Of a stretch of DNA of 20,000 nucleotides, positions 271 to 15,935 are shown piece by piece (position 1 is the stretch's first letter; every line of letters begins with the position of its first letter). The position numbers and the translations under genes were made by a program. Below the pieces are notes generated by a model, which worked only from the letters and a program-made list of their open reading frames with translations, was not told the origin of the DNA and searched no databases. Source of the DNA: an uncultured virus (IMG/VR IMGVR_UViG_3300031867_000039) (lineage: Duplodnaviria; Heunggongvirae; Uroviricota; Caudoviricetes; Schitoviridae). The stretch lies in the IMG/VR virus record IMGVR_UViG_3300031867_000039. One strand, written 5' to 3'.

Positions 271-2433
271 CTATACAATAGACTTCATAATAGTATTATC
301 AATTTCAGACTCTTTTAATGGTGACTCTATTTTAGAGTTTAGATCTTTAACTCTGGTTTCAATCTCAATGAGTTCTTTACCCATATCCTTTAGAACCAAA
401 GCATACCTATGCAATAGACTATTTCTACTTCCCTCTTTCATGTTAGATATGAACCAACGTTCAAGATTACCTAAATTCTTATCACTTAACTTGTTATAAG
501 CATCATTAAATTTAATATTTTTAACTGTCTTAGGTATCATAGGTCTTGGATCAAACAATACACCATCATTATAAAAGAATAGTCCATTATTCCCTTTCCA
601 AGCTCTACATCTATCATGAGTTACTTCATCAAGTTCAAATGGTAACCATTTAAAGACATTCTTCATAAATTCCTGATACTCATCTTTTCCCATAGACAGA
701 GTATATTTCATTGGAAGAACAATCCTAAAACGATCACCATTACCCTCTATTTGATGCCTTTTAGTTGTATGTATAAAATACGTAAACTCACTCAAGAGCT
801 TACGTACTACATCTAATTGCACATTATGGTCGCAGTCTAATACCAGCAGATTGAACTGTTCTTGGACATGCGCTTCATCCCTGTAACCATGCGTGTTGAT
901 GTTCTCACTAGTGATGAAATCGCTGAGATGATGGTTACACCAATAGTAAGCACTCTGGCAACAGAGTTGATCAAGTTTATTAAAAGGTGCATATTCGTTC
1001 AAATACCCCTGAGTTATGTTAGTACTATACGATAGTATAACTTCATTAAGATTAGTCTCAGGTAAGCAGACTGCAGATAAAAACTCTACTCCATCATCAA
1101 TAGAATATCGTTTTATCGCTATATTATTATCATAACCCCAAGCAGAAGCTAATGCTAACAAATCATTCTGTTTCTGTTTAGCTTGTGGATAATAAGGAAG
1201 TTCACTCAAATCAGCGTGTGTTAATGGTTTCTTTGCATTAGCAATATACTTAGCTAATTTAACATATGGTTTATCCCTCTTTAAGAGTTGTGCAAAGCAC
1301 TCACCACTGTCTTCAGCTAATTGTATTGCTGCAAGTATATGGTCTTTTGTAACTTCAGTTGAACCATCAACAAAAGCATAAGCTCCTGCAAGTTTTAATA
1401 CTTTATAATACCTATGCTCTAACTCGTTTCTTTGGTTTTCTTCGTTATTATTGAACTTTTTAGCTACCTCTTGACAATAGCTCCTATACTCAATTAATAA
1501 TAATGTATTCTCCTTACTTAAACTAAGATCTTTATTTCTGTTAGTACTATCAGCCAATTTACCAAAATCATTACTAATATCTTCTATGTCTTTTGTAACG
1601 GTTGAATTAGTAACTCTTTCGTAAATTTCCTCTGGTGTTAGAGCAAGACTAGTTTTATCTCCAGTAGCAAAGAAACTTCTTCTAGCATATCCAGTCCTTA
1701 GATATTCAAGAATTAGCTTTTCATTCAATGCACCATCGAATAATCTTCCTGGTTCACCAAACAACAACATATTACAAGGAACAGGATCATCCCTTTCCTC
1801 TGCTCTTTGATTTTCTGCTGTATTCTTTGTTATTTTCTGTTTCAGTCTACCTTTATCAAAGATAACCAAACCATCAATAAGTAATTCATCTAAATTTGTA
1901 ATTACAGAACCAAGTTCATCACATATAAATGATAATGCACCTATACCTGCCATCTGAGCTTTAGTACGTACCTGTTTAAATGCAGCACTAGTACCACTAT
2001 CAAAACTATATGGCATAGCTCCATAACTTCTAAATTCTTTAAGTAATTCCCTTAATGCCTCTTCTCTTACAATACCTGTATCCAAAGAGATTTGATTAGC
2101 ACATTCAGTCATAGTTATATTAGCTACTTCATTAAAAGTTATTTTAAACTTTCTAATAAACTTATCTAATATATTCTCTTCAAGAAATCCTGTTGCTAAT
2201 CCTTTACCTGCACCTGATTGCATGAAACACATGCAATACATATTTACAGGTGTTCTACCACCATAGAAATCACTTAATATATTACATCTCATATTAGATG
2301 CCATCTGAGAAAAGTAAAACCCTATAAGTGTTCTAAAATAAGTTTTAGCATTATTATTTAAGGTTTTACTTTCAAGTACATTAAGTAATTTCTCTGTAAG
2401 TGGATGATAAGGAAACTTTTGATTAAAATCCAT
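271..2433 (-). CDS. DNA primase (N4 gp43-like: N-terminal NTPase-like region, AEP primase motifs, C-terminal PriCT-like domain)
   Basis: 720 aa. QSGAGKG P-loop-like motif, LVLDCD and HTTKRH AEP-type motifs, and GSRNSLL...A PriCT-like C-terminus. Synteny with N4 gp42-gp44. Confidence 0.8.
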   Translation of the reverse strand: MDFNQKFPYHPLTEKLLNVLESKTLNNNAKTYFRTLIGFYFSQMASNMRCNILSDFYGGRTPVNMYCMCFMQSGAGKGLATGFLEENILDKFIRKFKITFNEVANITMTECANQISLDTGIVREEALRELLKEFRSYGAMPYSFDSGTSAAFKQVRTKAQMAGIGALSFICDELGSVITNLDELLIDGLVIFDKGRLKQKITKNTAENQRAEERDDPVPCNMLLFGEPGRLFDGALNEKLILEYLRTGYARRSFFATGDKTSLALTPEEIYERVTNSTVTKDIEDISNDFGKLADSTNRNKDLSLSKENTLLLIEYRSYCQEVAKKFNNNEENQRNELEHRYYKVLKLAGAYAFVDGSTEVTKDHILAAIQLAEDSGECFAQLLKRDKPYVKLAKYIANAKKPLTHADLSELPYYPQAKQKQNDLLALASAWGYDNNIAIKRYSIDDGVEFLSAVCLPETNLNEVILSYSTNITQGYLNEYAPFNKLDQLCCQSAYYWCNHHLSDFITSENINTHGYRDEAHVQEQFNLLVLDCDHNVQLDVVRKLLSEFTYFIHTTKRHQIEGNGDRFRIVLPMKYTLSMGKDEYQEFMKNVFKWLPFELDEVTHDRCRAWKGNNGLFFYNDGVLFDPRPMIPKTVKNIKFNDAYNKLSDKNLGNLERWFISNMKEGSRNSLLHRYALVLKDMGKELIEIETRVKDLNSKIESPLKESEIDNTIMKSIV

Positions 2434-3369
2434 TTAAACCCCCATCATTGATTTATACTGAGAACATAAATCTCTACCTTTACAAAATCTGCAAGCTACT
2501 GGTTCACCTTTACGTTCTTTAACAATACCTTTACCACGTTCATTAAGGCATTTATAAGCCTCTACAGAAGTATCAAATACTTTAGTAGCTCTCTTACTGT
2601 CTGGATTTGCATAATAAGCAAATGTACTTGGTTTAAACTGTAATTCCTCTGCAGTACAGAATGGAATATCTTTCTCATCAGAGTCATAGTACTTATTTAA
2701 TCTTGTTATCTTATCCAAAACATAAGTAGTTACATATGTCTGAGAATGTAAATCTATCTTCTGTTCAAGTACTTTAGCTTTAGGATATCCTGGTGTATTT
2801 ACCTTACTTTCTTGCCAGTTCTTGAAGATAAAGTTAATAGCTATTGTATCTTCTGTAATAAGTGGTGAAAGCCACCTATAAATACTTCCTTGCATACGAT
2901 AGTCATTAGTCTTACAACCAGTTTCATAAGTATATGTACCAGTAGTTTTGAAATCAATAAGCTGTCCATTAAATACCATATCAAACTGACCTGTTACAGT
3001 CCAGTCTAATACTTTCTTCTCTATACGTTGTTCAAGATATACAGGTATATCACCATCATGTACTTCTGTTGGATTAATCTTAATAGCATTAATAGTCTTA
3101 TCTGAATAACCTAATACTTTAAGATTTTCCTTATAGTTATTAGTCCATGCATGTTCTATAGCAGAATGAATAGCAGTACCTACTGCTGCATCTATCCTAT
3201 CTATTACATCTTCTTCACTATTTGTAGATGCTCTTCTACTTAATAATATCTGTCTTACAGACTTTAATAAGGTAGTAGCTGATATAGATTTATCTTCATT
3301 ACTACCTGTATATTCATTATTTACAGCCCATACACTTAATGCTACGGGTACTTCATACTGATTTAACAT
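2434..3369 (-). CDS. PD-(D/E)xK (RecB/Cas4-like) nuclease, N4 gp42-like
   Basis: GTAIH, GQFD...IDFKT and QGSIY motifs plus a C-terminal CxxC...C cluster. Positioned upstream of the primase. Confidence 0.8.
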   Translation of the reverse strand: MLNQYEVPVALSVWAVNNEYTGSNEDKSISATTLLKSVRQILLSRRASTNSEEDVIDRIDAAVGTAIHSAIEHAWTNNYKENLKVLGYSDKTINAIKINPTEVHDGDIPVYLEQRIEKKVLDWTVTGQFDMVFNGQLIDFKTTGTYTYETGCKTNDYRMQGSIYRWLSPLITEDTIAINFIFKNWQESKVNTPGYPKAKVLEQKIDLHSQTYVTTYVLDKITRLNKYYDSDEKDIPFCTAEELQFKPSTFAYYANPDSKRATKVFDTSVEAYKCLNERGKGIVKERKGEPVACRFCKGRDLCSQYKSMMGV

Positions 3370-3385
3370 TTAAACCCCAAAGAAT

Positions 3386-3416
3386 AAAAAAGAGAGATTA
3401 TAGTATCTCCCTTTTT
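3386..3416 (-). terminator. Probable intrinsic terminator (possibly bidirectional)
   Basis: AGAGAGAT-loop-ATCTCCCT stem flanked by A and T runs, downstream of the holin-like gene. Confidence 0.55.
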
Positions 3417-3435
3417 ATAAAAAATTTAAACTGTT

Positions 3436-3873
3436 TTATTTATTAGTTAATGTTTTTTGTTTTTCCCAACTACCTTGACTTGATCCAAGCCAAAATGCCA
3501 CTGCAGTGCTGAAAGCACCACTAACAGTACCTGCAATCATTATTAATACCTGTCCATAAGCCTCAGATGGTGGAATAAGAAATAAAGCTAAGAACATACC
3601 ACATACCATTAGAGCCAAGACAAAGGTTAATGCACTAGGCATCCAATGACCTGTCATTTTGGTTTTAGTTATAGCTTTAAAATCAAGTAAACTGGATTCT
3701 AGTTTATATAACTGAGCCATATTAGTATCATCTGATAATACTTCTAATACTTGTTCTTCATCAGTTATATCTACTTTTAAGATACTTTCTAATAGTTTCT
3801 TACCACTAGCAGTATCTAATAAAGAAGCTACATTAGGTGTAGCTTCTAATTTAGTTTTAATACTGTTACACAT
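3436..3873 (-). CDS. Membrane protein, holin-like (3TM/GTA-holin-like)
   Basis: Two hydrophobic helices near the C-terminus followed by FWLGSS and a basic tail. SD AAGGAG upstream. Confidence 0.55.
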   Translation of the reverse strand: MCNSIKTKLEATPNVASLLDTASGKKLLESILKVDITDEEQVLEVLSDDTNMAQLYKLESSLLDFKAITKTKMTGHWMPSALTFVLALMVCGMFLALFLIPPSEAYGQVLIMIAGTVSGAFSTAVAFWLGSSQGSWEKQKTLTNK

Positions 3874-3905
3874 ATAATCTCCTTATTGGTAACAGTACTA
3901 TAAAG

Positions 3906-4283
3906 TTAATCTACTCTTTTTACAAGGTATGACTGTATCAGAGCTGTGATCTTATCATTACCTAAAGTAAATCTAACATATCCACAAGGTAATGGTTCAC
4001 CATACAATTCGGTTTCAGCTAAAGCCAACAAGATACATAAATAATCTTTAACAGTACAACCACGAACAGTAAAGGTAATCTTAGTAAAATCACCTGCAGT
4101 CAGTTCTTCTAAGTGTTTCTGTTTAAGTTTATATCTATGAATTTCTTTAGGTTCTTCTTCCTTAACTTTTTCTTTTGGTTCAGGACCTTTACGAAGTTCC
4201 TCTAACTCAGCTTTTAAATTGCTAATCTCTTTATTCATTGAATCCAAGATTTTGCTTAATTGAATTTTTGTAGATCTATCCAC
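3906..4283 (-). CDS. Hypothetical protein with N-terminal coiled coil
   Basis: 125-aa ORF whose start overlaps the stop of the polymerase C-terminal part. Confidence 0.7.
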   Translation of the reverse strand: MDRSTKIQLSKILDSMNKEISNLKAELEELRKGPEPKEKVKEEEPKEIHRYKLKQKHLEELTAGDFTKITFTVRGCTVKDYLCILLALAETELYGEPLPCGYVRFTLGNDKITALIQSYLVKRVD

Positions 4284-4998
4284 GATTTTTCTTCTCCAAC
4301 TGTAATAACTTAATTAAATCATCTTTACTAATATCATTAGGTATAGTTACTGGATGTGCCCAGTCAGGATAAAATAAATCAAGTTCACCACCTAAATGTA
4401 CTTTATCATGTGCTATATCACTAGCATCCTGCCACTTCATAGCTTTACCTAAAATCTTATTTAAATAACATATAGCATCAAGATTATCTCGCACTATATA
4501 ATATGAAGCATCATGTATTTGTGCTACTGGTAATATGTCATACTTATAAGGGCTATTCCATACTTGCTCCATTACTTCACATACTGCTCTACAATTAAGT
4601 AATCCCCATGATTGTCCTAATGCATTACCTGCTGTTTTAGCATCTTTAGCTGCTCTAGCAGATGTCTTATTAGTATTAAGGATACTCTCTTTAAGAACAG
4701 GTGTACGTAATCTTAAACCAAAAGCACAAGTAACATATCCATCTTTACATGCTCCATCAAGACGAGTATTAACATACTCATCCGCTACCTTATATAATTC
4801 ATGATATGTATTATATATTCGTTTAGCTTCTTCCTCCGTAGCTATACCACACTCTTCCATAAGAGCTTTAAATGTACCACCGTAAGTAAGTGCAAATGTA
4901 GCACTCTTACTGTCCTGTCTTAGATTTTTATGTTTTTGTTTTATAGAATTTATTATACCTATATGGTATTCTTGTTGTGATATTTCTCTAATCTTCAT
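4276..4998 (-). CDS. Family A DNA polymerase, C-terminal part (motifs B and C)
   Basis: RQDSKSATFALTYGG (motif B), GNALGQS, and VAQIHDA (motif C). Confidence 0.9.
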   Translation of the reverse strand: MKIREISQQEYHIGIINSIKQKHKNLRQDSKSATFALTYGGTFKALMEECGIATEEEAKRIYNTYHELYKVADEYVNTRLDGACKDGYVTCAFGLRLRTPVLKESILNTNKTSARAAKDAKTAGNALGQSWGLLNCRAVCEVMEQVWNSPYKYDILPVAQIHDASYYIVRDNLDAICYLNKILGKAMKWQDASDIAHDKVHLGGELDLFYPDWAHPVTIPNDISKDDLIKLLQLEKKNRG

Positions 4999-5105
4999 AA
5001 TAGTATCAATAAAATTAATATTGCTAACCAGTATTTCGGTATTGTTATAGTATGTTTATTATCACAACTTTTAATGACATTGTTAAGTTCATTCTTAAAT
5101 GTCAT
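4995..5105 (-). CDS. 36-aa peptide with hydrophobic C-terminus (below the ORF-track cutoff)
   Basis: MTFKNELNNVIKSCDNKHTITIPKYWLAILILLILL*. ATGA overlaps at both ends: with the stop of 5102..5296 and with the start of the polymerase C-part. Confidence 0.65.
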   Translation of the reverse strand: MTFKNELNNVIKSCDNKHTITIPKYWLAILILLILL

Positions 5106-5296
5106 TTAACCCAAACCTTATCATATCTATCAGGTAACACATCACAATTTGTTGTAGTACCATCCATATATACTACACGTACACATTGTTTTGTCTCCCA
5201 TGAATATTCAACTTCAGGTGTATTAAGAGCTGTGATAAAACAAAAAGCCAAAAAACCACAAACTGCAATAAATGCAAATAAATCAAATTTAGACAT
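5102..5296 (-). CDS. Small membrane-anchored hypothetical protein
   Basis: N-terminal hydrophobic segment, then PEVEYSWETKQCVRV...C. Overlaps both neighbours. Confidence 0.7.
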   Translation of the reverse strand: MSKFDLFAFIAVCGFLAFCFITALNTPEVEYSWETKQCVRVVYMDGTTTNCDVLPDRYDKVWVK

Positions 5297-5474
5297 GATA
5301 ATATAAATCCCTGTAAAAATCTTCTAATTCTTCCATATTATAGATATCTCTATGCATTTGACCTGAAGTAATAAAGACTACAGATTTAAATCTAAATTCA
5401 CTATAGTCTTTAATATCAGCTTTTATTTTTAACTTAATCTGACGCATTTGCAATTTCCTCATTAACGTCTGCAA
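5289..5474 (-). CDS. Hypothetical protein
   Basis: 61-aa ORF overlapping both neighbours. The start may be at a downstream Met. Confidence 0.6.
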   Translation of the reverse strand: MQTLMRKLQMRQIKLKIKADIKDYSEFRFKSVVFITSGQMHRDIYNMEELEDFYRDLYYHV

Positions 5475-5946
5475 AACATTTATCTAAAGTATCTTTAAGT
5501 ACTGGAAATCTCTTATATAAACCATCAGTTGAAGTACAACTACGTAAAGCCACTTCTAAGCATTCTTGAAACTTATCATAAAGCTCTTTCCTTTTAGCAT
5601 ATAACGATTCAGTCTTAGCTGCATAACTAAAATACTCTTCAGCCTCTTTAGGTGCTAAATCTTTAAAACCAAATCTAACACCAAAATCACTATATACATG
5701 ATAGTAACTACCATTTATACTAATAGAATATCCATCTGGTTTAAGCTGCAATACTTCAGTTAAGAATTGTTCATGTCCTTTATATTTATTCTTAATTAAT
5801 ATATTTAAAGTATTACAAAATTCTTCTTCTGTTACACCAAAGTAATCATGAGGTGCTTTAATAATAGCATCCTTTAATAACTTATCTCTCATATACTCTT
5901 TAAGTGTATATCTGATATTACTAATTAATTCTTTAGTCAAACGCAT
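5434..5946 (-). CDS. Hypothetical protein
   Basis: 170 aa; start overlaps the polymerase N-part stop. No HNH, GIY-YIG or LAGLIDADG motif seen. Confidence 0.7.
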   Translation of the reverse strand: MRLTKELISNIRYTLKEYMRDKLLKDAIIKAPHDYFGVTEEEFCNTLNILIKNKYKGHEQFLTEVLQLKPDGYSISINGSYYHVYSDFGVRFGFKDLAPKEAEEYFSYAAKTESLYAKRKELYDKFQECLEVALRSCTSTDGLYKRFPVLKDTLDKCFADVNEEIANASD

Positions 5947-7946
5947 AATTTTTTATACTCCTCATCATATTCAGATAAGTACTTAACATTACCCTCATCA
6001 TCAATAACTTCATAGAACTTACCACCTTTATTAAGATACTCTAACTTCTCTGTAATATCTGGCATAAGATGTTTATAATAACTGTACGCTCTTAGACAAT
6101 GACCATCAAAAGCGTCAAATTCATAATTCTTAGAAACGCTGAAAGCGTCAGAAGAAACATCTTTAAAGGTCTGATAAAGACTATCACCTGTATAAGTAAC
6201 ACCATTATATTCAATAGTATCATCACTACCTATATACTTGGTTTCACCATTAATAACTACCTTATAGTTAATACCTGGTATATAAACCTTTAACTTTTCT
6301 GGATCTTTAGTAAGTAATGCAGATATATGATCTTCTAATGAAGAAAAATCTGAACCACAAAATACAAATCCATCAGGTGCTTTAAAACACTTCTTAAATG
6401 GTTTAGCCCATACAGTACCAGTAGCAGGTAAATTCTGTAAGTTAGGACTACTACTACTTAATCTACCTGATACAGTACCACCTATATTAAAATTACCATA
6501 TAATCTATTATTAACAGATGATTCCATAGCAGGTATGAAGTTATTCATAATCTGCATAGCACAAGATAGTTCTATTAATTTATCCATTAATACTTTCTGA
6601 TCTTCATTACAATAACTTCTTAAATCCATAATTACATCTTTCTCTGTAGATGGTTGTTTGGATTCAGTATATTTAATAATAGGTAGTTTCATTACTGTAT
6701 AGAGTAATACACGTAATTGAACAGAACTTCTTAGATTAATCTTAAAATCAATAGATGTCTTCTTCTTGGTTTTTAATTTAGCATTAACTTTATCTAATGC
6801 CTCTTTATATAGGATTCTTTCTGCATCTTTTACTTCATCAAATAACAATAAAGTATTATGAGCATCATCAATAGCTATTTGTAGTTTCTCTTTTAATTTA
6901 GCTACTTCATTCATATCCATATATAAACCATTAAGTTCTGTATGGGTTAATACCTTTTGAGTAGGTAATAACAACTCACGATATAGTTTCTCCTGCTTAT
7001 CTTGAACCATAATAGGATAATATTTATTATATACATACCATGTAGCACATACATCTTTTAGGTTATATTCTAATTCAGTCTTAGTATCTACTTTGGATAT
7101 ATCACCTATATCTTCTAATGCATATTTACCTGTATATTCAAATGCTAAATCCTTTAATTTATATGATGGTTTACCTGTAGAATTAAGTGCTAGATATGCA
7201 ATTATCTTAGTATCATCTATGTTCTTATACATAGTGTGTAAACCATACTGTAAACCTACTTGGTCATTTATATCTTTCATAAATAACTCATATATAAGTA
7301 CTTTCACATCAAATGAGGCATTATGGAATATTAATGTACCTTTATAGGTTTCAAAGAATTGTTTTAATTTCTTCTTATCTTTTACTGTAAATGCAATACC
7401 ACCATGCATATCAGTACCAAATGCAATAGAAACCAAACCACAATTATGGAATTTTAATCCATTAGTTTCTATATCTACTGTCAATTTATCATAAGATAAT
7501 AAATCAAATAGATGTTCATCTGTATAATCTGCATGGGTAATAATATTATTAACTTTAGTATTAGCATTATTTAAACAAGCTATACTTGTTTTTAACTTAT
7601 TCATTAGTGATGGGTCATACTTAAATGCTAGATAATTTAATCCAAGAATAACAGTAAATCTACTATCTAATTTACAAGGGTATCTCTTACCAAAGCAATA
7701 TTCAGTAGATTTCTCACCTGTTAATACCTTAAAATATCCTGCATCACATACAAATAATTCATCAATACCTTGATTAGCTAATTGAGGTAATAGATTCTCT
7801 ATATATGTTTTAGCTTCCTTTACGTTAAAGTTCTTACTTGAATAATAGAGTCCCTGACACATACAGTTAGGAACACCATTATTAAAATAATAATACTGTA
7901 TATTCTCCATATACAATAAACTATTTTTAATTAACAAGCATAACAT
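5937..7946 (-). CDS. Family A DNA polymerase, N-terminal part (extra N-terminal domain, 3'-5' exonuclease, polymerase through motif A)
   Basis: Exo I VDIET, Exo II FHNASFD, Exo III YNLKD, TVSGRLSSSSPNLQNLP, motif A GSDFSSLE, and DGHCLRA. Stops before motif B. Confidence 0.9.
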   Translation of the reverse strand: MLCLLIKNSLLYMENIQYYYFNNGVPNCMCQGLYYSSKNFNVKEAKTYIENLLPQLANQGIDELFVCDAGYFKVLTGEKSTEYCFGKRYPCKLDSRFTVILGLNYLAFKYDPSLMNKLKTSIACLNNANTKVNNIITHADYTDEHLFDLLSYDKLTVDIETNGLKFHNCGLVSIAFGTDMHGGIAFTVKDKKKLKQFFETYKGTLIFHNASFDVKVLIYELFMKDINDQVGLQYGLHTMYKNIDDTKIIAYLALNSTGKPSYKLKDLAFEYTGKYALEDIGDISKVDTKTELEYNLKDVCATWYVYNKYYPIMVQDKQEKLYRELLLPTQKVLTHTELNGLYMDMNEVAKLKEKLQIAIDDAHNTLLLFDEVKDAERILYKEALDKVNAKLKTKKKTSIDFKINLRSSVQLRVLLYTVMKLPIIKYTESKQPSTEKDVIMDLRSYCNEDQKVLMDKLIELSCAMQIMNNFIPAMESSVNNRLYGNFNIGGTVSGRLSSSSPNLQNLPATGTVWAKPFKKCFKAPDGFVFCGSDFSSLEDHISALLTKDPEKLKVYIPGINYKVVINGETKYIGSDDTIEYNGVTYTGDSLYQTFKDVSSDAFSVSKNYEFDAFDGHCLRAYSYYKHLMPDITEKLEYLNKGGKFYEVIDDEGNVKYLSEYDEEYKKLCV

Positions 7947-9181
7947 TAGCGTAATCTCCCATAATATAAATATATCTTCTCTTTAGCTCTGGATGCAGCT
8001 ACATAGAACAATCTACTTCTAAGTGCCGGATCTACTATTGGTTTACCATATTTAGTTGTAGCGTATAAATCCTCTATATTGATAAATACCTTATCATATG
8101 TAGAACCTTGAGCAGAATATATAGTAGCTGACTGACAGAACCTTAATTTAAGAACATTCTCACAAAAACATGCATATTCATAAAAATCATGTTTCTTAGC
8201 ACATTTCTTATATAACTCTTTAACTACTGATTCATATTGATCTGGATTATAGAAAGTCTTATATCTACCACTAGCATCTGTAAATGTTACATAACACATA
8301 CCACTTTCAGGTGCATTCTGAATAGTAGATATAGTCTTAATTTCCTCTACATATGTTTTTCTACTCATAGGTGTAGATGGTAATGCACTTTTACAAACAA
8401 CTAAATCACCCTCTTGTATATAGTTAGGTTGGTTCTTTAAGCTACGTAATGCACCATTCATTAAATCCACACATTTATTAGTATGACCCAAGATACGATC
8501 ATTCTCTCCCATAGATAAGAATACATCAGCAATATCTTCATTACGTACTATCTGTATATTCTCAGATGGTTGAATACTCATAATGAAATTATCAATGGTA
8601 GGACAATCAATATGATCTCTACAATCCATAATTAACTGCTTAACATCTTCATGATTAAATCTAATTAATTCAGTTAATTCTACCTGTGGGATATCTGTAT
8701 TAAAGATATTAAAAGTACTATTTACAGGCGGTAGTTGGTTCTTATCACCTACATAAATAATCTTATTCTTCTTCTCTAAAATATCTGACTGTATAAATTC
8801 ATATAGATCATCACCTATCATAGAACATTCATCAATAAAGAATATATTACCTGAGATATTAGGAATACCTTGTCTACGTAATACATCATTACCTGTAGAT
8901 GTATCTTTCTGTGGTTTAATCATAAGAATACTATGAATAGTCCTACCATTAATCAATCTACTAGCTTTATTAGTAGTAGCTGTATTAACTATCTTCTTAT
9001 ATGGGATTTCAAATCCCATTTTATTAAGTGCATCTATTTCTTTTAGTATTCCTGTTAAATCCTGAAGTAAATAAGACTTACCAGTTCCAGGTGAACCAGT
9101 AAGTATTATCTCTTTCTGATGTGGATCTAGTATGAAATTAGCTAGTAGTTCTCTAGCATTTTTTTGTTGCTCTGTCAGCAT
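7946..9181 (-). CDS. SF1B (Dda/RecD-like) DNA helicase
   Basis: GSPGTGKS, TIHS, IDECSM, GDKNQLPPV, AQGSTYD and YVAASRAK motifs. Confidence 0.9.
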   Translation of the reverse strand: MLTEQQKNARELLANFILDPHQKEIILTGSPGTGKSYLLQDLTGILKEIDALNKMGFEIPYKKIVNTATTNKASRLINGRTIHSILMIKPQKDTSTGNDVLRRQGIPNISGNIFFIDECSMIGDDLYEFIQSDILEKKNKIIYVGDKNQLPPVNSTFNIFNTDIPQVELTELIRFNHEDVKQLIMDCRDHIDCPTIDNFIMSIQPSENIQIVRNEDIADVFLSMGENDRILGHTNKCVDLMNGALRSLKNQPNYIQEGDLVVCKSALPSTPMSRKTYVEEIKTISTIQNAPESGMCYVTFTDASGRYKTFYNPDQYESVVKELYKKCAKKHDFYEYACFCENVLKLRFCQSATIYSAQGSTYDKVFINIEDLYATTKYGKPIVDPALRSRLFYVAASRAKEKIYLYYGRLR

Positions 9182-10397
9182 AGATTACTTTTCCTACATA
9201 ATCAAAGTTTGGATTATCAATAATAACCCAGATTATATCATCTCTAGGTGGTTTTGCATCTTCCCAAAACATACCATCAGTGAAGGTAAATACAAGGTCA
9301 GTATCCTCACAATCCTTAAATACAGGTTTGATGTCAGTACCACCTCTACCCTCTATAGGAAGTTCCGAAGGGAACTCATCTTCTCTGTAGATCTCAATAG
9401 GTGTATGTAATCTAGTATCAAAAGGAATAACTTTAATTAGCTCTGGATTAAGGATATCCCTAATACCACTTATTTCAGCTAAATACTCTGTTATTTCCTC
9501 AGAAGATACTGAACCAGATACATCAATATAGATTTTTACAGATTGATTACATGCATTCTTAGATAATCTACCTGGAAGATATACACTTGGATAATGCTTA
9601 TTACGATGAGTAAAAGAATAACCCTCTCTTACTAATTGACATAGATAATCCTGTAAGTGAGATTTCCAATCTATCTTTGGTTCAAGAATGTTTTTAATTA
9701 ATTCCTTAATTTCAGCACAACTTAAACCAGCAGCAGATTTCTCTCCAACCATTCTAGCAGTTTCAACAGCTCTAATAATGGTTTGTTGGATTTGTTCTTT
9801 ACCATCATTACCACCTGGAGTCTGTCTAACATCTTTACCAAAGATATCTTTCAAACCATTTGAACCATCAGAATTACCTTGTTGGTTCTGATCTTGGTTT
9901 CCATTACCACCATTACTATTTGAATCACCTTGGCATTGTTTACAGTTACCTTGTTGTGGTTGGTTCTTACCTTGTTTCTTACATTTCTTCATCAGAATGT
10001 CATAGACTTGTTCTGTAGTCATACCTGCATATTTCTGGTCAATTAAACCATCAGCAGGCATCTTACCTAAATCAGAACTCTTCTTTAATTCTGCATTAAT
10101 AACGTAATCACCTGCAATATTCCATAAGTCTGGATCTCTATCACCCAGTCTTACAGTATGCATGAGAGCTACATGCATAGTCTCATGTGCAAGTAAGAAT
10201 ACCCTTTCATCTTTAGATAACTTACTAAAGAACTCTTTATTAATTAATATATGTTTACCATCAGTACAAGCTGTATCAATTTCATCACTATACTGAGTTT
10301 CCATAGAATAAAAAATGGTGCTTAGAAAAGCACCACCCTTTAATGTAAAATTAATCTTAGCTTGTACTAATATCTTATCAGATGTTTTCTGCGACAT
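9153..10397 (-). CDS. Metallopeptidase-like/VWA domain protein (DUF2201-like, N4 gp25-like)
   Basis: TACTDG, HETMH (HExxH), WNIAGDYVIN, a Q/N/G-rich linker, MIDAS DVSGS, GRGGT and FTDG. Confidence 0.85.
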   Translation of the reverse strand: MSQKTSDKILVQAKINFTLKGGAFLSTIFYSMETQYSDEIDTACTDGKHILINKEFFSKLSKDERVFLLAHETMHVALMHTVRLGDRDPDLWNIAGDYVINAELKKSSDLGKMPADGLIDQKYAGMTTEQVYDILMKKCKKQGKNQPQQGNCKQCQGDSNSNGGNGNQDQNQQGNSDGSNGLKDIFGKDVRQTPGGNDGKEQIQQTIIRAVETARMVGEKSAAGLSCAEIKELIKNILEPKIDWKSHLQDYLCQLVREGYSFTHRNKHYPSVYLPGRLSKNACNQSVKIYIDVSGSVSSEEITEYLAEISGIRDILNPELIKVIPFDTRLHTPIEIYREDEFPSELPIEGRGGTDIKPVFKDCEDTDLVFTFTDGMFWEDAKPPRDDIIWVIIDNPNFDYVGKVIYADRATKKC

Positions 10398-11406
10398 ATT
10401 TACCTGCCTCTATACAAACACCACTGCATAATCTTAACTCATTAGCTTTAGGACCTGTTAAAGCCATTCTAAACAATACAGTTAATAACTCAGGTGGTAA
10501 ACCTTTGCTATATGTAATGATAGGCTGCCAATTATTCTTATCCATTCTATGAGCCAACAATGCAGTCATGTAATAACATTCACCTGTTGTTTGAGGTACT
10601 CTAGTACCTGTAGGATCTTTAATGATTTCTTCAAACTTAGGTAACTTAGCACCTAATTGCTGGAAAGCATTAAATTCAATAGCTGGACCTTGACCAACAG
10701 TACCTGCCATAACCTTAAATAAACCATCAAGATTAGGTGTATCTTTGATAATGTCACTAAGCATATGCCATGTTCTAGGACATGGATAAGTAACATCAGT
10801 ACTATTAGTATCAAACTTCCAGAGTAAATCCTTTCTCTGCTGTAAGAAACCTATAATTCTATAATCAATTTCATTCTTATAAGCCCAGTTCATCCATTGA
10901 TCTATATCTGGTTCAATAAATAAATGAATTAATCGTGACTGTAATGCACTAGATAGTTTATTAACAATAGCTTTATCTGTAGATAAATTACCTGCAGCTA
11001 CCATATAACAATTATCATTTAATACATTATTACCTACTTCTCTATCCAAAAGAATACGATATGCAGCAGCTTGTACATCTCTACCAGCACTATTTAATTC
11101 ATCAAAGAATAATAACCAACCATTATATCCCTCTGGTACTGGTTCACCCTGTAAAGGAAAGTATTTAAGTGGTTTATAATCACACTTAGATCCATCTAAG
11201 AAAGGAAATCCAAGTAATTCAGTTGGTTCTACCTGAGATAATCTAATATCAATTACCTTTAATTTATAGAAATTAGCTACTGCTTTCACAATATCAGATT
11301 TACCTATACCAGGTGAACCCTGTAAGAAAGGAACTCTCTTACCTTTCATAATAGCTATAATATTCTTAACTGCTTCATCTGTATTACTCATTAACTGTTC
11401 GTACAT
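10378..11406 (-). CDS. MoxR-like AAA+ ATPase (N4 gp24-like)
   Basis: GSPGIGKS, LFFDELN, AAGN and PCPRTW motifs. Paired with the VWA protein. Confidence 0.88.
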   Translation of the reverse strand: MYEQLMSNTDEAVKNIIAIMKGKRVPFLQGSPGIGKSDIVKAVANFYKLKVIDIRLSQVEPTELLGFPFLDGSKCDYKPLKYFPLQGEPVPEGYNGWLLFFDELNSAGRDVQAAAYRILLDREVGNNVLNDNCYMVAAGNLSTDKAIVNKLSSALQSRLIHLFIEPDIDQWMNWAYKNEIDYRIIGFLQQRKDLLWKFDTNSTDVTYPCPRTWHMLSDIIKDTPNLDGLFKVMAGTVGQGPAIEFNAFQQLGAKLPKFEEIIKDPTGTRVPQTTGECYYMTALLAHRMDKNNWQPIITYSKGLPPELLTVLFRMALTGPKANELRLCSGVCIEAGKYVAENI

Positions 11407-11413
11407 AATTAAC

Positions 11414-11656
11414 TTACTCCCAATAAGTTTCTATTTCTTCTAAAAATGTTAATTTAACTATGAAATTCTCTTTATTATATGAATTAATAATATTAGCTAA
11501 ATGACTATTACTAATCTCTCTAACTAAATTATTAATATTGATATTAGTATCTATCTTCTTATCTAATAAGAAATCTAAATCTAATACATATTCAATACTA
11601 TCTGATAATAATGCTATAGGATCTATAATATAAATATTATATTTATATAGTACCAT
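11414..11656 (-). CDS. Hypothetical protein
   Basis: 80 aa, very AT-rich. SD-like GAGGG upstream. Confidence 0.55.
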   Translation of the reverse strand: MVLYKYNIYIIDPIALLSDSIEYVLDLDFLLDKKIDTNININNLVREISNSHLANIINSYNKENFIVKLTFLEEIETYWE

Positions 11657-11697
11657 ATAAATACCCTCACCTTTTTCGTCCGCCAGCAGACGCTAGT

Positions 11698-11898
11698 CTA
11701 ATCCAAACTCTGAGAACTGTCAACAAAAATTGCAAAGGTTAGTAAATCTTGTGATGCACTTAACAACTCAACTTCTGCATTGTCATTTACATCAATCATT
11801 CCAAATTTACCTGCAACTACTAATGTATCCTTAGAGTCATAAACTTCTAACCATACATTTTCTTTATAATATTTCTCTTTAAATTCCTTATATAACAT
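11698..11898 (-). CDS. Hypothetical protein
   Basis: 66 aa; SD GAGG upstream. Confidence 0.65.
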   Translation of the reverse strand: MLYKEFKEKYYKENVWLEVYDSKDTLVVAGKFGMIDVNDNAEVELLSASQDLLTFAIFVDSSQSLD

Positions 11899-12032
11899 TT
11901 AAACCTCGTAGAACCACTCAAATACGCTCTCTGAGCACCATACTTTATATTTCCCATATAAACCCCTTACTTTCTATAAAATGCTTAAAAAACATAAAAA
12001 ATCTATGATAGGGCTGAAAGCCCCTAAAAAAG

Positions 12033-12060
12033 AAAAAAAGAGTGGCATTACACCACTCTC
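12033..12060 (-). terminator. Intrinsic terminator
   Basis: GAGTGG-loop-CCACTC stem with a minus-strand T-run, just after the stop at 12068. Confidence 0.7.
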
Positions 12061-12067
12061 CATAAAA

Positions 12068-12577
12068 TTAATACTGATCCATATTTACAAATCTATTATA
12101 TATTGTAACCTCCCTTTTAGTTGGTTCCATACTAGATTCCAACTCTCTCCATGTTTCAGGTAATGGATCTGTTTCATAGTCAACAATACCCTCACTATCT
12201 CTTACCGTAATATGAGATACTTCAGGTAGACCATTTTCATCAAATAACCTGAGCCAACCATACAATGTAACAGTTACAGACTTTTTACCAAAATTACAAT
12301 GAACATCTTTCAACTTAATATATGTTATTGGTTCATCTCTAACCAGCTCTTCATAAGAACTAATTAAACTATTAACCAAACTATACAATAAGTCTAAGTC
12401 CTTATAATCGGTAACCCAGGATTTCATGGTATCCTCTCCTAAGATACATTTACCATTACCTAAATCCTTAAAATAAGTACCTAAGTTTTCACATCCCTCA
12501 ACATAAGGAACAGTGATATACATACAGTACCAATCCCTAATAGGTTTAACTTCTACTTCATATCCTTTACACCTCAT
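12068..12577 (-). CDS. Hypothetical protein
   Basis: 169 aa; SD GGAG upstream; followed by a terminator. Confidence 0.7.
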   Translation of the reverse strand: MRCKGYEVEVKPIRDWYCMYITVPYVEGCENLGTYFKDLGNGKCILGEDTMKSWVTDYKDLDLLYSLVNSLISSYEELVRDEPITYIKLKDVHCNFGKKSVTVTLYGWLRLFDENGLPEVSHITVRDSEGIVDYETDPLPETWRELESSMEPTKREVTIYNRFVNMDQY

Positions 12578-12692
12578 AATCGAAAATCTCCAACAATTCT
12601 TCTCTTGAATAAATCCCTAAATGTATATTATTTCTAAATACATCATAATATGCTGTACCTGCAAAGTACTTCTTAAATTTAACTGATAGCAT
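12567..12692 (-). CDS. 41-aa hypothetical protein (below the ORF-track cutoff)
   Basis: MLSVKFKKYFAGTAYYDVFRNNIHLGIYSREELLEIFDYEV*. Fills the gap and overlaps both neighbours; AAGGGA upstream. Confidence 0.55.
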   Translation of the reverse strand: MLSVKFKKYFAGTAYYDVFRNNIHLGIYSREELLEIFDYEV

Positions 12693-13902
12693 ATCTATTA
12701 TCCCTTATAGCATCAAATATCTGCTGGTTATATGGACCTACATGTTGCCAAATAGCATTGTCTTTTCTGTAATCACAAATGATTGTAGGTAACAATATAC
12801 TTGCATATAACTCTGCAAGAATATCGTTATATACCTGTTTCATTACATTTACATGACTAGGTAAACACATAAATTCATCATGAATACTCATAACTTCAAA
12901 TGGTTCACCATAAAGATTACTTAATACATTGTATAAAGTATCCAAATAATCTTTAGATACATTTCCAACATAACCAGTCTGTAAATACTCAATAGCTTGC
13001 CAGCTATAGAAGTTATACTTCCTAGCTAACTGTTCAAGTCTCTCTAATCTTGGATTAGTTCCAACTTTAGGATATTTTAACGTATTTAAAGCTATATAAT
13101 ATTTATCTTCGTCATAGTTACATCTTCTATGTAATTCACGTAAAATAAATCCATCAATACTATGTGTTACATTAGCACTTAGAGCTTTAGTCTTATCTTC
13201 ACCTTTTTCTTTAGGTGCTAGAACTTCTTCTACATAAGTATAGGATGTATTACCTATCTGATACCTGAATGGCATCACCTTTGTACTTAAAGTTCTAGCT
13301 TGAAAACCATCAGGTAAAGTATGTTCATAAATAACTACATCATTTCTCCATGCATCAATTAATGCGTTATTTACTACAACTACACCTTTGGCTTTCTTAA
13401 AGAAGGCTTTCTGAAACCATTTGTAATAGTCACCAAATACAGCTCTTGGTGTAGCAATAGATCCATATACATATGGTACAGTTGCTTTCTTTACTTGGTC
13501 TCTAGTTAAAGATACTGGTACATACAGTTGCATCTCATCTTGGATTTCCTTATACAAATTAGGAACTTTCTCACTGATAGCACCTGTAGTAACCATTCCA
13601 TCTAAATCTCTAATACCTGTACAATCTATCTGAGGACCTGATGAACTTACATCAATACCTATAGGTATATTAGTATATTTAGTTGTAAGAACATCATTCA
13701 TTGATAACAATGCTCTTACAAACATATCTGGTTCATCAGCCTCTTCAACATATTTCTTTACCACTGCTTCAAGACTTGTACTCTTTAATTCTTCTTTTAA
13801 AGAATTACCAAATTCAAGTCTCTTCTCGAAGGTTTCTTTATCCATTCCATATTTGGATGCTATATCAATAGCAATCCATTCAATAGCTTTAAACTTTTCC
13901 AT
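12679..13902 (-). CDS. RNA polymerase II subunit 2 (N4 gp16-like, T7-family catalytic part)
   Basis: GIDVSSSGPQ (motif A), RDQVKKATVPYVYGS (motif B), ANVTHSIDG, and SIHDEF (motif C). Confidence 0.9.
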   Translation of the reverse strand: MEKFKAIEWIAIDIASKYGMDKETFEKRLEFGNSLKEELKSTSLEAVVKKYVEEADEPDMFVRALLSMNDVLTTKYTNIPIGIDVSSSGPQIDCTGIRDLDGMVTTGAISEKVPNLYKEIQDEMQLYVPVSLTRDQVKKATVPYVYGSIATPRAVFGDYYKWFQKAFFKKAKGVVVVNNALIDAWRNDVVIYEHTLPDGFQARTLSTKVMPFRYQIGNTSYTYVEEVLAPKEKGEDKTKALSANVTHSIDGFILRELHRRCNYDEDKYYIALNTLKYPKVGTNPRLERLEQLARKYNFYSWQAIEYLQTGYVGNVSKDYLDTLYNVLSNLYGEPFEVMSIHDEFMCLPSHVNVMKQVYNDILAELYASILLPTIICDYRKDNAIWQHVGPYNQQIFDAIRDNRYAIS

Positions 13903-13907
13903 AAGTG

Positions 13908-14771
13908 TTATTCCTCTTTTATAATTTCACCTAAATTAAATACAATGGATGCTTTTACAGGCTTAATACCTTGATAATTACATTCATATGCTTTACAATA
14001 AGTTCTACCTCGTTTATCAAATTTGTGAGCTAACCAAAAAGGTCTATCCTTAAATAGCTCTCTTCTCGTGGTGATTGCATCTTTTAGCAGATTGAATGAC
14101 TTTCTCCTCTCTTCTTTCTCTTCTGCCGTTTCAATGTGATCACCACGTACCTTATCTCTTTCATCAAATCTAAATCCTATTAATTCTGATACTCTTGGAT
14201 CATATCTAAAAGCTACAGAATTAACTCGATTTATGTGACTAAGACATAAGTCACCCTCAAGTGGATTAAGTTTAGAACCACATAAGATACGTTCATTAAA
14301 TTCCTCATATCCTATATTGTATTTAGTAACCGCTTTCAGCGGTTTATATGAAGGAACTAAATATCCAACTTTACTAATATCAATATTTAAAGGATATAGT
14401 AATTTAATAAACCATTGATCATTAAGGGTTCTATTACATTTAAATAAACCACTCTCTAATAAAGTTTGGATATAGAAATTAATAGCCATACCTGTTCTAT
14501 GTGCAGTAGAACATGTTAATGCTGGTTTAAGGATAGCAGTCCATTCCTGAATTACTATCTCTGGTTTAAATAAAAATAAAGCAAAGCATTTCTGAGTATG
14601 TTTGATTACATCAAACTTCATATATACTTCTTTAATTTCATTAATCCATTCTTTATCACCATATTCATTAACTTTACTTTCTATTGAACGATAAATAAAA
14701 TTAATAAACTGATCATTAAACTCTACTCTTTTATATTGAAGTTCAGTAGTATATCTATCAATATTGTTCAT
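13908..14771 (-). CDS. RNA polymerase II subunit 1 (N4 gp15-like)
   Basis: C-terminal HKFDKRGRTY...NYQG (DxxGR motif). Directly upstream of subunit 2. Confidence 0.85.
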   Translation of the reverse strand: MNNIDRYTTELQYKRVEFNDQFINFIYRSIESKVNEYGDKEWINEIKEVYMKFDVIKHTQKCFALFLFKPEIVIQEWTAILKPALTCSTAHRTGMAINFYIQTLLESGLFKCNRTLNDQWFIKLLYPLNIDISKVGYLVPSYKPLKAVTKYNIGYEEFNERILCGSKLNPLEGDLCLSHINRVNSVAFRYDPRVSELIGFRFDERDKVRGDHIETAEEKEERRKSFNLLKDAITTRRELFKDRPFWLAHKFDKRGRTYCKAYECNYQGIKPVKASIVFNLGEIIKEE

Positions 14772-15728: not shown

Positions 15729-15790
15729 AGCTAAAATCTCCATATATAAAGTAAAAGTAAAAGTCAAAATACTGCCACAAAAGCAGTATT

Positions 15791-15815
15791 ACCACTATCT
15801 ATAAATAATGAAAAC
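15791..15815 (-). promoter_or_regulatory. Conserved early-gene motif, copy 9 (putative phage promoter)
   Basis: + strand ACCACTATCTATAAATAATGAAAAC. Confidence 0.7.
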
Positions 15816-15857
15816 AAAAAAAGTAAAAGGACACCCGAAGGGTGTAAGGGTGTCCCG

Positions 15858-15884
15858 AAAAGACAGTCTCTAAATAATGAGAAC
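15858..15884 (-). promoter_or_regulatory. Degenerate copy of the early-gene motif
   Basis: + strand AAAAGACAGTCTCTAAATAATGAGAAC. Confidence 0.45.
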
Positions 15885-15895
15885 GTGAGAAATAT

Positions 15896-15930: not shown

Positions 15931-15935
15931 AAAGG

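Follow-up and report, generated by a model that had tools for sequence, protein, structure and literature searches.

The DNA analysed here (the window, a stretch of 20,000 nucleotides) comes from cattle-gut metagenomes and represents the replication module of a phage that is uncultured and distantly N4-like (Schitoviridae-type); homologues of the N4 RNA polymerase II proteins gp15/gp16 are also found in it, at 12679-14771. A family A DNA polymerase is encoded on the minus strand in two genes, an N-part and a C-part, with four overlapping open reading frames (ORFs) in the gap between them (Table 1). The exonuclease and motif A lie on the 669-aa N-part and motifs B and C on the 240-aa C-part, and the position of the cut is the fingers loop directly before the O-helix. 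The two parts match profile positions 9-179 and 199-360, respectively, of the 381 positions of Pfam PF00476, which agrees with an earlier interpretation of the DNA (the sequence-only reading) that had placed the split between motifs A and B.

Table 1. Features of the split polymerase locus, in gene order on the minus strand.
Feature	Positions	Strand	Basis or remark
PolA N-part, 669 aa: 3'-5' exonuclease, thumb, palm motif A, first fingers half	5937..7946	-	ORF and profile matches
Motif A (D..LED), N-part residues 533-539, catalytic aspartate	6330..6350	-	alignment
In-frame 54-aa insertion, N-part residues 557-610, after LKVY	6117..6278	-	alignment and tail match
N-part tail, residues 632-669	5940..6053	-	comparison with unsplit relatives
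Gap ORF 1, 170 aa, lineage-specific	5434..5946	-	start overlaps N-part end by 10 nt
Gap ORF 2, 52 aa from ATG at 5447	5289..5447	-	
Gap ORF 3, 64 aa, hydrophobic N-terminal segment	5102..5296	-	PHROG matches
Gap ORF 4, 36 aa, hydrophobic C-terminus	4995..5105	-	ATGA overlap at each end
PolA C-part, 240 aa: 15-aa leader, O-helix/motif B, motif C	4276..4998	-	ORF and profile matches
C-part leader, residues 1-15, ahead of INSI and motif B	4954..4998	-	
Motif B (R..K...F...Y.G), C-part residues 27-41, O-helix	4876..4920	-	alignment to Klenow O-helix segment
Motif C (H162, D163), second catalytic aspartate	4510..4515	-	alignment

The N-part, which terminates with the stop codon at 5937-5939, matches PF00476 (E 2.3e-23), the exonuclease family PF01612 (E 1.7e-9), and phrog_17 (E 2.9e-86), and the DNA polymerases of the Schitoviridae are 36-41% identical to it. 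Its motif A, in which D533, L537, E538, and D539 are invariant columns (alignment A6), aligns with the motif A region of Klentaq and 7r0k. The C-part matches PF00476 (E 3.2e-13) and phrog_2573 (E 4.3e-32), while 783 proteins near its length match it at E<=1e-10, and its exact sequence represents a cluster of 52 member sequences. The O-helix (motif B) binds the incoming nucleotide, and R27, K31, F35, and Y39 of the C-part are invariant in alignments A7 and A3, as are H162 and D163, which align with the motif C HD of 7r0k and Klenow.

From the N-part to the C-part, the successive junctions overlap by 10 nt, 14 nt, 8 nt, ATGA, and ATGA, the 14-nt figure assuming that gap ORF 2 starts at the ATG at 5447. 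As every junction overlaps, the ORF map of the gap has no non-coding base between the two parts, and the four ORFs described by the sequence-only reading were recovered; the 61 aa that it had assigned to the second of these (5289-5474, from a TTG at 5474) are less likely, however, given that the ATG at 5447, with GAGGA 8 nt ahead of it, is the more likely start. Overlapping starts and stops are the usual style of the whole gene module, rather than a peculiarity of the gap: the junction between the helicase and the N-part is TAATG, and the ORF that follows the C-part overlaps it by 8 nt. No Shine-Dalgarno-like run was seen upstream of the C-part ATG.

Gap ORF 1 has no family match in the Pfam and PHROG profile searches and no endonuclease signature, and its structure model (pLDDT 70) is largely helical, with no clear fold match among known structures, in keeping with the earlier claim that no homing-endonuclease motif is present in the gap of the window. 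Six homologues were found, at 72-100% identity. Gap ORF 3 is a member of uncharacterised phage families (phrog_8293, E 1.3e-16; phrog_14626, E 1.1e-15), and its ATG is a GTG in all four of the other runs compared, while gap ORFs 2 and 4 matched no family in the Pfam and PHROG profile searches. Among the 40 variants listed of a total of 151, the N-part and the C-part each have 10 synonymous and two non-synonymous changes, gap ORF 1 has six and three, and gap ORF 2 has four and four, which suggests weak constraint on this last ORF. Both parts of the polymerase look to be under selection.

The layout of the locus is real and not misassembled, given that an independent DNA contig and the RNA contigs of three libraries are colinear with it. 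The DNA contig (2894 nt, from a run of another study) spans 4720-7613 and differs from the window by 63 substitutions, without indels, and the RNA-library contigs, from three studies, cover both junctions (X16, 4609-5614 and 5588-6189; X15, 5835-6257; X18, 4712-5167 and 5697-5988). Misassembly, which the sequence-only reading had named as grounds for its own refutation, is thus contradicted, and an assembly chimera, which might be suspected in a window of metagenomic origin, has a negligible probability when both junctions are reproduced in this way. One joint in a DNA run, 4753-to-6088, probably belongs to another organism, since one of its sides has just 23 nt, at 85% likeness.

Of 80 related IMG/VR loci, 21 are cut at the same site, with earlier duplicates being counted once: 15 are window-like (type A) and six are of a second form (type B). 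The leader pattern of the window is present in approximately 66 of the best 120 clusters of C-part length, and a longer leader in approximately 22. Split and unsplit forms are interleaved in the C-part tree, where type A needs six changes, at least two of them forced by well-supported branches, although, in a tree of 217 columns obtained by a quick search, well-supported branches do not require most of the apparent gains and losses. Another idea is that the gene is a decaying, non-functional polymerase in a phage that replicates with another enzyme. A second polymerase could lie elsewhere, given that the visible genome is 20 kb, but the catalytic motifs are all intact, the variants in both halves are mostly synonymous, and the two-gene form is retained in relatives down to approximately 50% identity, many of them on contigs of 70-79 kb, so that decay is very improbable.

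The two parts have extensions at the cut. The N-part ends 38 aa past MPDI, as had been described; the first residues of this tail match the loop of the unsplit relatives, while the other approximately 30 aa are found in split forms only, as are the first approximately 10 aa of the C-part leader, the first part of which is missing from the unsplit relatives. In the 17 unsplit relatives listed, inspection found a loop of 6-20 aa alone between MPDI and INSI, whereas all 21 split loci carry both extensions. The tail, for which 50,697 phage records gave no significant match, is kept in distant relatives, and is conserved rather than junk. In the type A loci compared, its pN/pS ranges from 0 to 0.38, with pN<pS in 12 of 12 pairs, and the values for the leader are similar in the same pairs wherever pS > 0. 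The tail and the leader are under purifying selection and, because this selection acts on both, they appear to be translated rather than spliced out.

This selection on the protein sequence is one of the arguments against the removal at the RNA level, as an intron, of the approximately 1.1 kb between the MPDI and INSI codons, to produce a single chain. In other Schitoviridae, HNH-bearing insertions in the polymerase gene are annotated as introns in GenBank (in Pylas, for example), and although the Rfam scan of the window found no intron match, and none near the threshold, it is a weak negative, given that Rfam performs poorly on introns that carry ORFs, and 13 related control loci, including HNH-interrupted sites that GenBank calls introns, also gave nothing. 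Each base of the gap lies within overlapping ORFs, however, relatives with the same cut have spacers down to approximately 30-50 nt, and no joint spanning the gap was found among the RNA-library contigs. These are assembled contigs that may include DNA and may lose rare forms, and a minor spliced species may exist alongside the colinear RNA, but an intron is most unlikely, as the sequence-only reading had held.

That reading had also seen no intein, and a split intein, through which the tail and the leader would ligate the halves after translation, has an even smaller probability than the intron. No intein or Hint model (NCBIfam, Pfam) matched the 10 tail segments at E<=10, and no Hint or intein profile matched the whole N-part and C-part. 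The Hint fold requires approximately 130 aa, whereas the tail and the leader of the window together have approximately 53 aa, and there is no terminal Asn before the C-extein in the window. The type B tails nevertheless look Hint-like by eye, L077 has a junction cysteine, and the available text of PMC2677866 describes "fractured" genes in which a free-standing endonuclease separates halves that carry split inteins. There, the two halves also flank a mobile endonuclease gene, as in some relatives of the window, but are rejoined by trans-splicing inteins, while none was detected in the window.

The contents of the gap vary among the relatives. A family of 144-156 aa, with no detectable kinship to gap ORF 1 of the window (hhalign probability 0.8%), occupies nine of the 15 type A gaps, the gap of L025 holds a ligase-like ORF, and those of L077 and L084 hold HNH_3/NUMOD4 endonucleases at exactly this site; the other gaps contain different uncharacterised ORFs, or nothing. 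The type B spacers are short, with a minimum of approximately 30-50 nt in L065, and two of the four that were folded (L065 and L058) have a strong hairpin, after which come a U-run and a separate ribosome-binding site. These unrelated contents in the same gap are what would be expected if the break acts as an insertion site for cargo genes, as had been proposed. They also argue against a polymerase of three or more subunits, in which gap ORF 1 or another gap protein would be an obligatory accessory, such as a clamp or processivity factor. Translation of gap ORF 1 is coupled to that of the N-part, and the ORF is well conserved within its lineage, and a chimallivirus split polymerase with a dedicated extra subunit is reported in the accessible part of PMC13648687; yet some gaps are empty, no relationship to gap ORF 1 was detected for the most frequent gap family, and the family of gap ORF 1 is tiny (five clusters at E<=1e-3 in a set of 1.84 billion representatives), which makes an obligatory third subunit improbable, if somewhat less so than splicing or decay.

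The HNH homing endonucleases in the gaps of L077 and L084 point to a mobile-element origin of the cut, a view that comes from these relatives, given that no endonuclease is present in the gap of the window. Another hot spot ("site 1") is located after motif A, where EcP1 and nACB1 lack the N-part insertion and have a gap of 54 columns in the alignment. Over 57 aa, the insertion shares 53% identity (E 2e-16) with the C-terminal tail of the N-part of L111, the polymerase of which is split at site 1, with an HNH gene coming after its N-part, and the sequence that continues past the insertion matches the head of the L111 C-part. Judging from these matches, the insertion corresponds, in unbroken form, to the tail found in a relative split at this site.

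The polymerase of the window resembles split phage polymerases that are already in print. The gp43 of T4-related phages (43A/43B) is split at the finger tip, with anything from 2 bp to 3 kb of DNA between the two genes (Petrov et al. 2006, 2010, via PMC3061061), and its fingers region is regarded as a preferred target of insertion elements in the available text of PMC3061061. Here too, the cut in a replicative polymerase lies in the fingers and leaves two genes that are translated separately, with varied intervening DNA, although gp43 belongs to family B and the polymerase of the window to family A, with its cut before the O-helix; unlike gp43, as portrayed there, the split forms of the window type share conserved tail and leader extensions, and the N-part has another hot spot, which lies 70 residues upstream of the cut and is filled in-frame. 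The same text describes an engineered Pfu polymerase cut near the finger tip and made via an AUGA overlap, which kept full activity non-covalently, but which is artificial, archaeal, of family B, and free of passenger genes (PMC3061061).

In the Aeh1 ribonucleotide reductase (nrdA-a / mobE / nrdA-b), as described in the accessible sections of PMC3045599, an essential gene is likewise fragmented by a mobile endonuclease cassette, the active-site residues are shared out over two chains, and C- and N-terminal tails that are missing from the unsplit homologues, and are essential for activity, occur without RNA or protein splicing. That case involves one phage, with the endonuclease present, whereas the polymerase cut is found across a large uncultured clade, and in the window the endonuclease is gone, or was never there. 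The NrdA tails are also oppositely charged (PMC3045599), while no clear opposition was found between tail and leader in the eight tails compared, in which the net charge is -2 to -3 in seven and 0 in one, with leaders of -1 to +2. The tail and the leader may be in contact, and a role in assembly is suggested for them by analogy with NrdA. Other phage families also have PolA in two genes: OM43 phages, with a small uncharacterised ORF, unlike homing endonucleases, between them (PMC10580990, in part), and an uncultured cyanophage lineage with a split family A polymerase (10.1101/325100, in part).

Within the same polymerase family, the genes of three cultured Schitoviridae, Klebsiella phage Pylas, Escherichia phage Pollock, and Acinetobacter phage nACB1 are interrupted in the fingers region by an HNH mobile endonuclease gene, annotated in GenBank as an intron in Pylas and as two polymerase genes in nACB1. 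This site is inside motif B, approximately 25 residues downstream of the cut in the window, and these phages do not have the window-type tail and leader. The N4 RNA polymerase II, in the same phage family, is a heterodimer of gp15 and gp16 and, like the DNA polymerase of the window, a single-subunit-type polymerase made as two chains, albeit an RNA polymerase. To our knowledge, the gp15/gp16 split is fixed across the whole family, with no cargo between the genes.

It is thus highly probable that the locus encodes a non-covalent, two-subunit polymerase, the remnant of a mobile-element insertion, with a gap that is now a cargo slot. The helicase, the N-part, the four gap ORFs, and the C-part would be transcribed as a single polycistronic RNA, on which ribosomes may travel over the overlapping stop and start codons to reach the C-part start, which is not preceded by a Shine-Dalgarno-like run. 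As neither half can act alone, the active site would have to be rebuilt by the predicted assembly, in which the halves would join via the normal palm/fingers interface, possibly aided by the tail and leader extensions, as the essential Aeh1 NrdA tails suggest. The cut may have originated with the insertion into the loop of a mobile cassette, for which a free-standing HNH homing-endonuclease gene is the likeliest candidate. On the comparisons made here, this cut is widespread and old, and the gap would later have become a tolerated slot with a turnover of contents, which, in this lineage, are four small uncharacterised ORFs.

What is a single polymerase gene in the relatives is represented in the window by two separate open reading frames (ORFs), the N-part and the C-part of a PolA enzyme, and the residues of the active site are divided between them (see the table of features). 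Both halves score above the curated cut-off of PF00476 (34.3 bits), with 83.2 bits for the N-part and 49.8 bits for the C-part; together they cover positions 9-360 of the 381 of this profile, and each also matches DNA polymerase families in PHROGs. All of the genes within 271-14771 lie on the minus strand, and the gap between the two halves is filled by ORFs of 170, 61, 64, and 36 aa, with a stop/start overlap at each junction that leaves no base free. For the 61-aa ORF, the ATG at 5447, 8 nt past a GAGGA, is the more likely start, and would reduce its product to 52 aa. This overlapping chain is not peculiar to the gap, because genes overlap throughout the module, as seen in the TAATG junction of the helicase and N-part genes, and in the 8 nt shared by the C-part and the next ORF.

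Features of the polymerase region and of the remainder of the window
Feature	Position	Strand	Product	Content
N-part	5937-7946	-	669 aa	PF01612 3'-5' exonuclease; PF00476 profile 9-179 of 381
C-part	4276-4998	-	240 aa	PF00476 profile 199-360
In-frame insertion in the N-part	6117-6278	-	54 aa	Follows motif A/LKVY
Low-complexity protein	9153-10397	-	414 aa	Long Gln/Asn/Gly-rich stretch mid-protein; PHROGs label 'HNH endonuclease' (phrog_1314), doubtful
Two adjacent genes	12679-13902 and 13908-14771	-		Match N4-like RNA polymerase families phrog_2051, phrog_2166
Region of higher G+C	15500-17000			G+C 0.36-0.44, against ~0.30 elsewhere
ORF with DprA-like part	15936-16949		337 aa	phrog_768

In the alignment with the unsplit polymerase of Enterobacter phage EcP1, the N-part spans motif A and the DGHCLRAY...MPDI helix, followed by a tail of 38 aa, and the C-part consists of a leader of 15 aa, followed by INSI and motif B. 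In profile and sequence searches against the PDB, residues 25-41 of the C-part fall on the O-helix segment of Klenow, and the N-part falls on the region of Klentaq and 7r0k that contains motif A. The catalytic residues of motif A (D533..D539) are found on the N-part, and those of motifs B (R27, K31, F35, Y39) and C (H162, D163) on the C-part, being invariant in our alignments with the relatives (A6 for the N-part, A3 and A7 for the C-part) and aligned to Klenow and 7r0k. Since motif A is separated in this way from motifs B and C, neither half could, as judged from its residues, be active alone. The ORFs, the coverage of PF00476, the overlaps, and a colinear DNA contig confirm the sequence-only reading of a polymerase split between motifs A and B by four overlapping ORFs.

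This contig, of 2894 nt, was recovered from a DNA run of another study, and covers 4720-7613 with 63 substitutions and no indel, which argues against misassembly. The stretch is present in sequencing runs of bovine gut metagenomes, which belong to 14 studies, and the exact C-part sequence represents a cluster of 52 member sequences. Selection is visible on both halves, each of which has 10 synonymous and two non-synonymous variants among the 40 differences listed of 151, with six and three, respectively, in the 170-aa ORF, and four of each kind in the 52-aa ORF. The start codon of the 64-aa ORF is polymorphic, the ATG of the window (5296) being replaced by GTG in all four of the runs compared.

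A tblastn search with the N-part matched 1441 phage records, the best 40 of which are all N4-like phages, with 35-41% identity. Other genes of the window code for a primase, an exonuclease, a Dda-like helicase, an ATPase, and two homologues of RNAPII subunits, and this shared replication-module gene set, together with the closest polymerase relatives, places the phage in the Schitoviridae (N4-like phages). The giant virion-encapsidated RNA polymerase, another mark of this family, is not encoded within these 20 kb. The products of the two adjacent RNA polymerase genes probably form a two-subunit RNAPII, another two-chain polymerase of this phage family. The region of higher G+C could be a recent acquisition. 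Some short part of 4000-8200 is matched at 90-99% identity by approximately 57 phage records, mostly of Staphylococcus phages, which are not among the matches listed.

The cut is old, and widespread among the relatives. A search with the C-part, confined to proteins of 132-420 aa, gave 949 candidates, 783 of which match at E<=1e-10, many of these being approximately 238 aa long and located on contigs of 70-79 kb. Approximately 66 of the best 120 clusters begin with the leader pattern of the window, M-K-I-E-E-I-S ... V-x-V-I-N-S-I (69 by script, three of which look like truncated gene calls), approximately 22 have a longer leader, and some 13 start upstream of DGHCLRA, which represents a different cut (site 1). 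An alignment-based scan of IMG/VR confirmed 531 relatives, and the best 80 of these 531 loci were classified: 21 are cut at the same place as the window (site 2), two have a leader-bearing start with the N-part beyond the available DNA, seven are interrupted elsewhere, and 50 are unsplit. The site-2 set, in which two loci from an earlier search were counted once, is made up of 15 loci like the window (type A) and six of another group (type B). No cultured phage with the leader was found among the best 40 and best 25 matches of two C-part searches. In one related locus (L019, 6001-10201), the polymerase matches are divided among three pieces set apart from each other (residues 1-501 and 502-537 of the N-part, and then the C-part), and this gene therefore has at least two interruptions.

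The split and unsplit forms interleave in a quick maximum likelihood tree built from the C-part minus the leader (91 rows, 217 columns), from which the duplicates L026, L028, L100, L101, L104, L107, L108, and L112, HSPs shorter than 190 aa, and identical rows were left out. Six changes are needed for type A, at least two of them forced by starred branches, and six for type B, at least one of them forced in this way. At the low resolution of this tree, the pattern fits repeated gain or loss of the cut, as would be expected for a homing element, and it could also accommodate only a few origins.

The two halves carry extensions that are specific to the split forms. In the seven unsplit close relatives inspected, MPDI is separated from INSI by only approximately 12-20 aa. 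The split forms all have approximately 25-45 aa added to the N-part, with the consensus core K-V-Y-K-V-T-x-D-D-G-S-I-E-Y-L, and at least 10 aa added to the C-part. The proportion of non-synonymous differences (pN) in the tail is lower than that of synonymous differences (pS) in every one of the 12 pairs of type A loci compared, with ratios of 0-0.38, and the same is true of the leader wherever pS > 0, these being uncorrected proportions from pairs that are not independent, the distant ones near saturation. From these proportions, the tail and the leader are translated and under constraint. A query of 60 aa from the tail found no match better than E 0.9 among 50,697 phage records. Opposite charges of the kind found in the tails of the Aeh1 NrdA were sought in the tails and leaders, and were not seen.

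Splicing at the level of the protein or the RNA would offer another route to a complete polymerase, one which the sequence-only reading had dismissed in both its forms. With regard to the protein, this dismissal holds: no intein or Hint model matched 10 tail segments at E<=10 or the whole polymerase proteins at E<=0.1, the leader ends in ...HIGI before INSI rather than in the Asn followed by Cys, Ser, or Thr of an intein, and the tail and leader are too short for the Hint fold. The idea that the tails are an intein relic has no HMM support, and is kept only as a low-odds account of their origin.

With regard to the RNA, the rejection of an intron stands on evidence other than the covariance models. 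A permissive Rfam scan of 3800-8200 returned four matches, all to small RNAs with E of 2-9, far below the threshold, and a scan of 13 related loci at the gathering threshold, which included the HNH sites of the phages Pylas and nACB1, returned none. The Rfam result alone is weak, because this control scan was not positive even at HNH sites annotated as 'introns'. Stronger arguments come from the selection on the tail and leader, the short spacers of type B, and the RNA-library contigs, which, in three libraries of three studies, are colinear across both junctions, with no joint over the gap; these contigs may include library DNA and lack rare forms, and are uninformative in either direction for the parts of the window that they leave uncovered. 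An intron is an intervening sequence that is removed and remains untranslated in the host protein, a description that does not suit the gap, given the protein-level purifying selection on the tail and leader and the colinearity of the RNA-library contigs.

The spacers of the type B loci range from approximately 30-50 nt in the shortest (L065) to some 210 nt. In two of these loci, L065 (352-420) and L058 (4880-4985), the spacer folds, directly past the stop of the N-part, to a strong hairpin with a U-run behind it (z = -5.5 and -2.95), and the C-part has a ribosome-binding site of its own; a simple/consensus terminator scan of the two spacers did not list these hairpins. The polymerase halves of type B may be transcribed separately. 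On the minus strand of the window's gap, no terminator-like site was found, and promoter-like matches in the gap are fewer than the shuffle expectation. The start of the C-part is without a Shine-Dalgarno-like run, and the structure of its RNA is nothing special (z = -0.11).

The content of the gap varies widely among the relatives. A family of 144-156 aa is present in nine of the 15 type A gaps, broken in one of them (L046), and contributes one of the six ORFs of the largest type A gap seen (L024, 2790-5001, 2.2 kb). In another gap (L025), an ORF of 71 aa accompanies one of 237 aa (4110-4823) whose product has the OB domain of DNA ligases (PF14743, E 4.3e-9); the gaps of L077 and L084 contain HNH_3/NUMOD4 endonucleases, and those of L020, L021/L022, L035, L040, and L012 have other ORFs of no assigned function. 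The gaps of L052, L056, L058, and L065 contain no ORF. This succession of unrelated ORFs, a ligase-like gene, HNH endonucleases, or nothing bears out the view of the break as an insertion site for cargo genes.

In the window itself, searches of the gap ORFs for endonuclease families and folds found none, in agreement with the sequence-only reading, and no match of these ORFs to cultured phages was found in either DNA or protein. The 170-aa ORF belongs to a tiny family, with six proteins in one search and five clusters in 1.84 billion representatives, and no relative was found in IMG/VR. It shares an M-R/K-L/V-T start with the commonest gap family, and kinship was rejected at an hhalign probability of 0.8%. 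Its AF2 model (pLDDT 70) is mostly helical; an endonuclease fold was rejected, Foldseek returning nothing from the PDB at E<=1e-3, and the highest Z of a wide VIA-align search being 7.3, within what helical noise produces. Look-alikes of Nmad5 reached protein-atlas scores of 0.86 and 0.78, a link that is at most a lead, and Nmad5 was absent from a Pfam hmmscan of five members of the family at E<=10. The 64-aa ORF falls in two PHROG families without assigned function.

The polymerase gene has further hot spots. In the related locus L111, it is cut exactly where the N-part of the window carries its in-frame insertion, being divided into an N-part with a tail, an ORF of 206 aa in which an HNH-like motif is recognized by eye, and a 278-aa C-part. 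The insertion is 53% identical to the tail of L111 over 57 aa (E 2e-16), and the sequence downstream of it resembles the head of the L111 C-part. Given this homology and its continuation, the same kind of module occurs both uninterrupted, in the window, and cut, in L111, and the insertion may be a healed or never-cut second split site. Inside motif B lies a third site, where Pylas, Pollock, nACB1, and the locus L010 have their HNH insertions.

Arrangements of this kind are known from other phages. According to one account (PMC3061061), the gp43 polymerases of T4-like phages are split at the finger tip, with 2 bp to 3 kb between the two genes, and the Pfu polymerase is active when split with AUGA coupling. 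Whereas gp43 belongs to family B, the enzyme of the window is of family A, and would be gp43-like in its working rather than a member of that family. For the split NrdA of Aeh1, Crona et al. (PMC3045599) describe essential tails that came with mobE, predict tail-like extensions for other fragmented genes, and raise an origin from a degenerate intein. Split PolA genes are mentioned in reports on OM43 phages (PMC10580990) and a cyanophage lineage (10.1101/325100). No description of the site-2 cut in N4-like phages was found in the literature searched, a coverage that stops short of subscription journals. The tails are lacking in the unsplit homologues, as in genes-in-pieces of the Aeh1 nrdA type, and a free-standing homing endonuclease between the halves is absent in the window and present in relatives, at L077 and L084 (HNH_3 and NUMOD4), and at site 1 in L111. 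The window is a known kind of arrangement, a phage polymerase in pieces, with the additions of a pair of hot spots, tails that are conserved, and a natural series of large size.

The reading of a split PolA is supported, and a most probable working order for it can be proposed. The helicase, the N-part, the gap ORFs, and the C-part would be carried on one RNA, translational coupling would bring the ribosomes to the start of the C-part, and the halves would then assemble non-covalently, helped by the tail and leader. The cut itself probably originated from an endonuclease cassette. It is a long shot that the tail and leader of site 2 and the homologous module of site 1 are a portable "antidote to fragmentation", which travels with HNH cassettes and clamps the halves together, and which would possibly be the worn-down ends of an HNH-bearing intein. 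If this were true, selfish elements could cut an essential polymerase at will, the module could later be fused back in-frame, as in the insertion of the window, the N4-like PolA would be a natural set of modular, re-joinable polymerase pieces, and accessory genes, perhaps of anti-defence, would be co-expressed from the gap in time with replication.

The two halves considered here indicate that a replicative polymerase of family A can consist of two chains, with the break immediately ahead of the O-helix that binds the nucleotide, and that this cut is a frequent feature of a large, uncultured branch of the N4-like phages, rather than being a one-off. The dozens of natural pairs of tail and leader under selection, together with the related module found in-frame, provide a test set for the reassembly of split enzymes. 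Gene callers and phage taxonomies based on the polymerase as a hallmark will mis-score such genomes unless the halves are joined, and small accessory genes can be sought in the gap.
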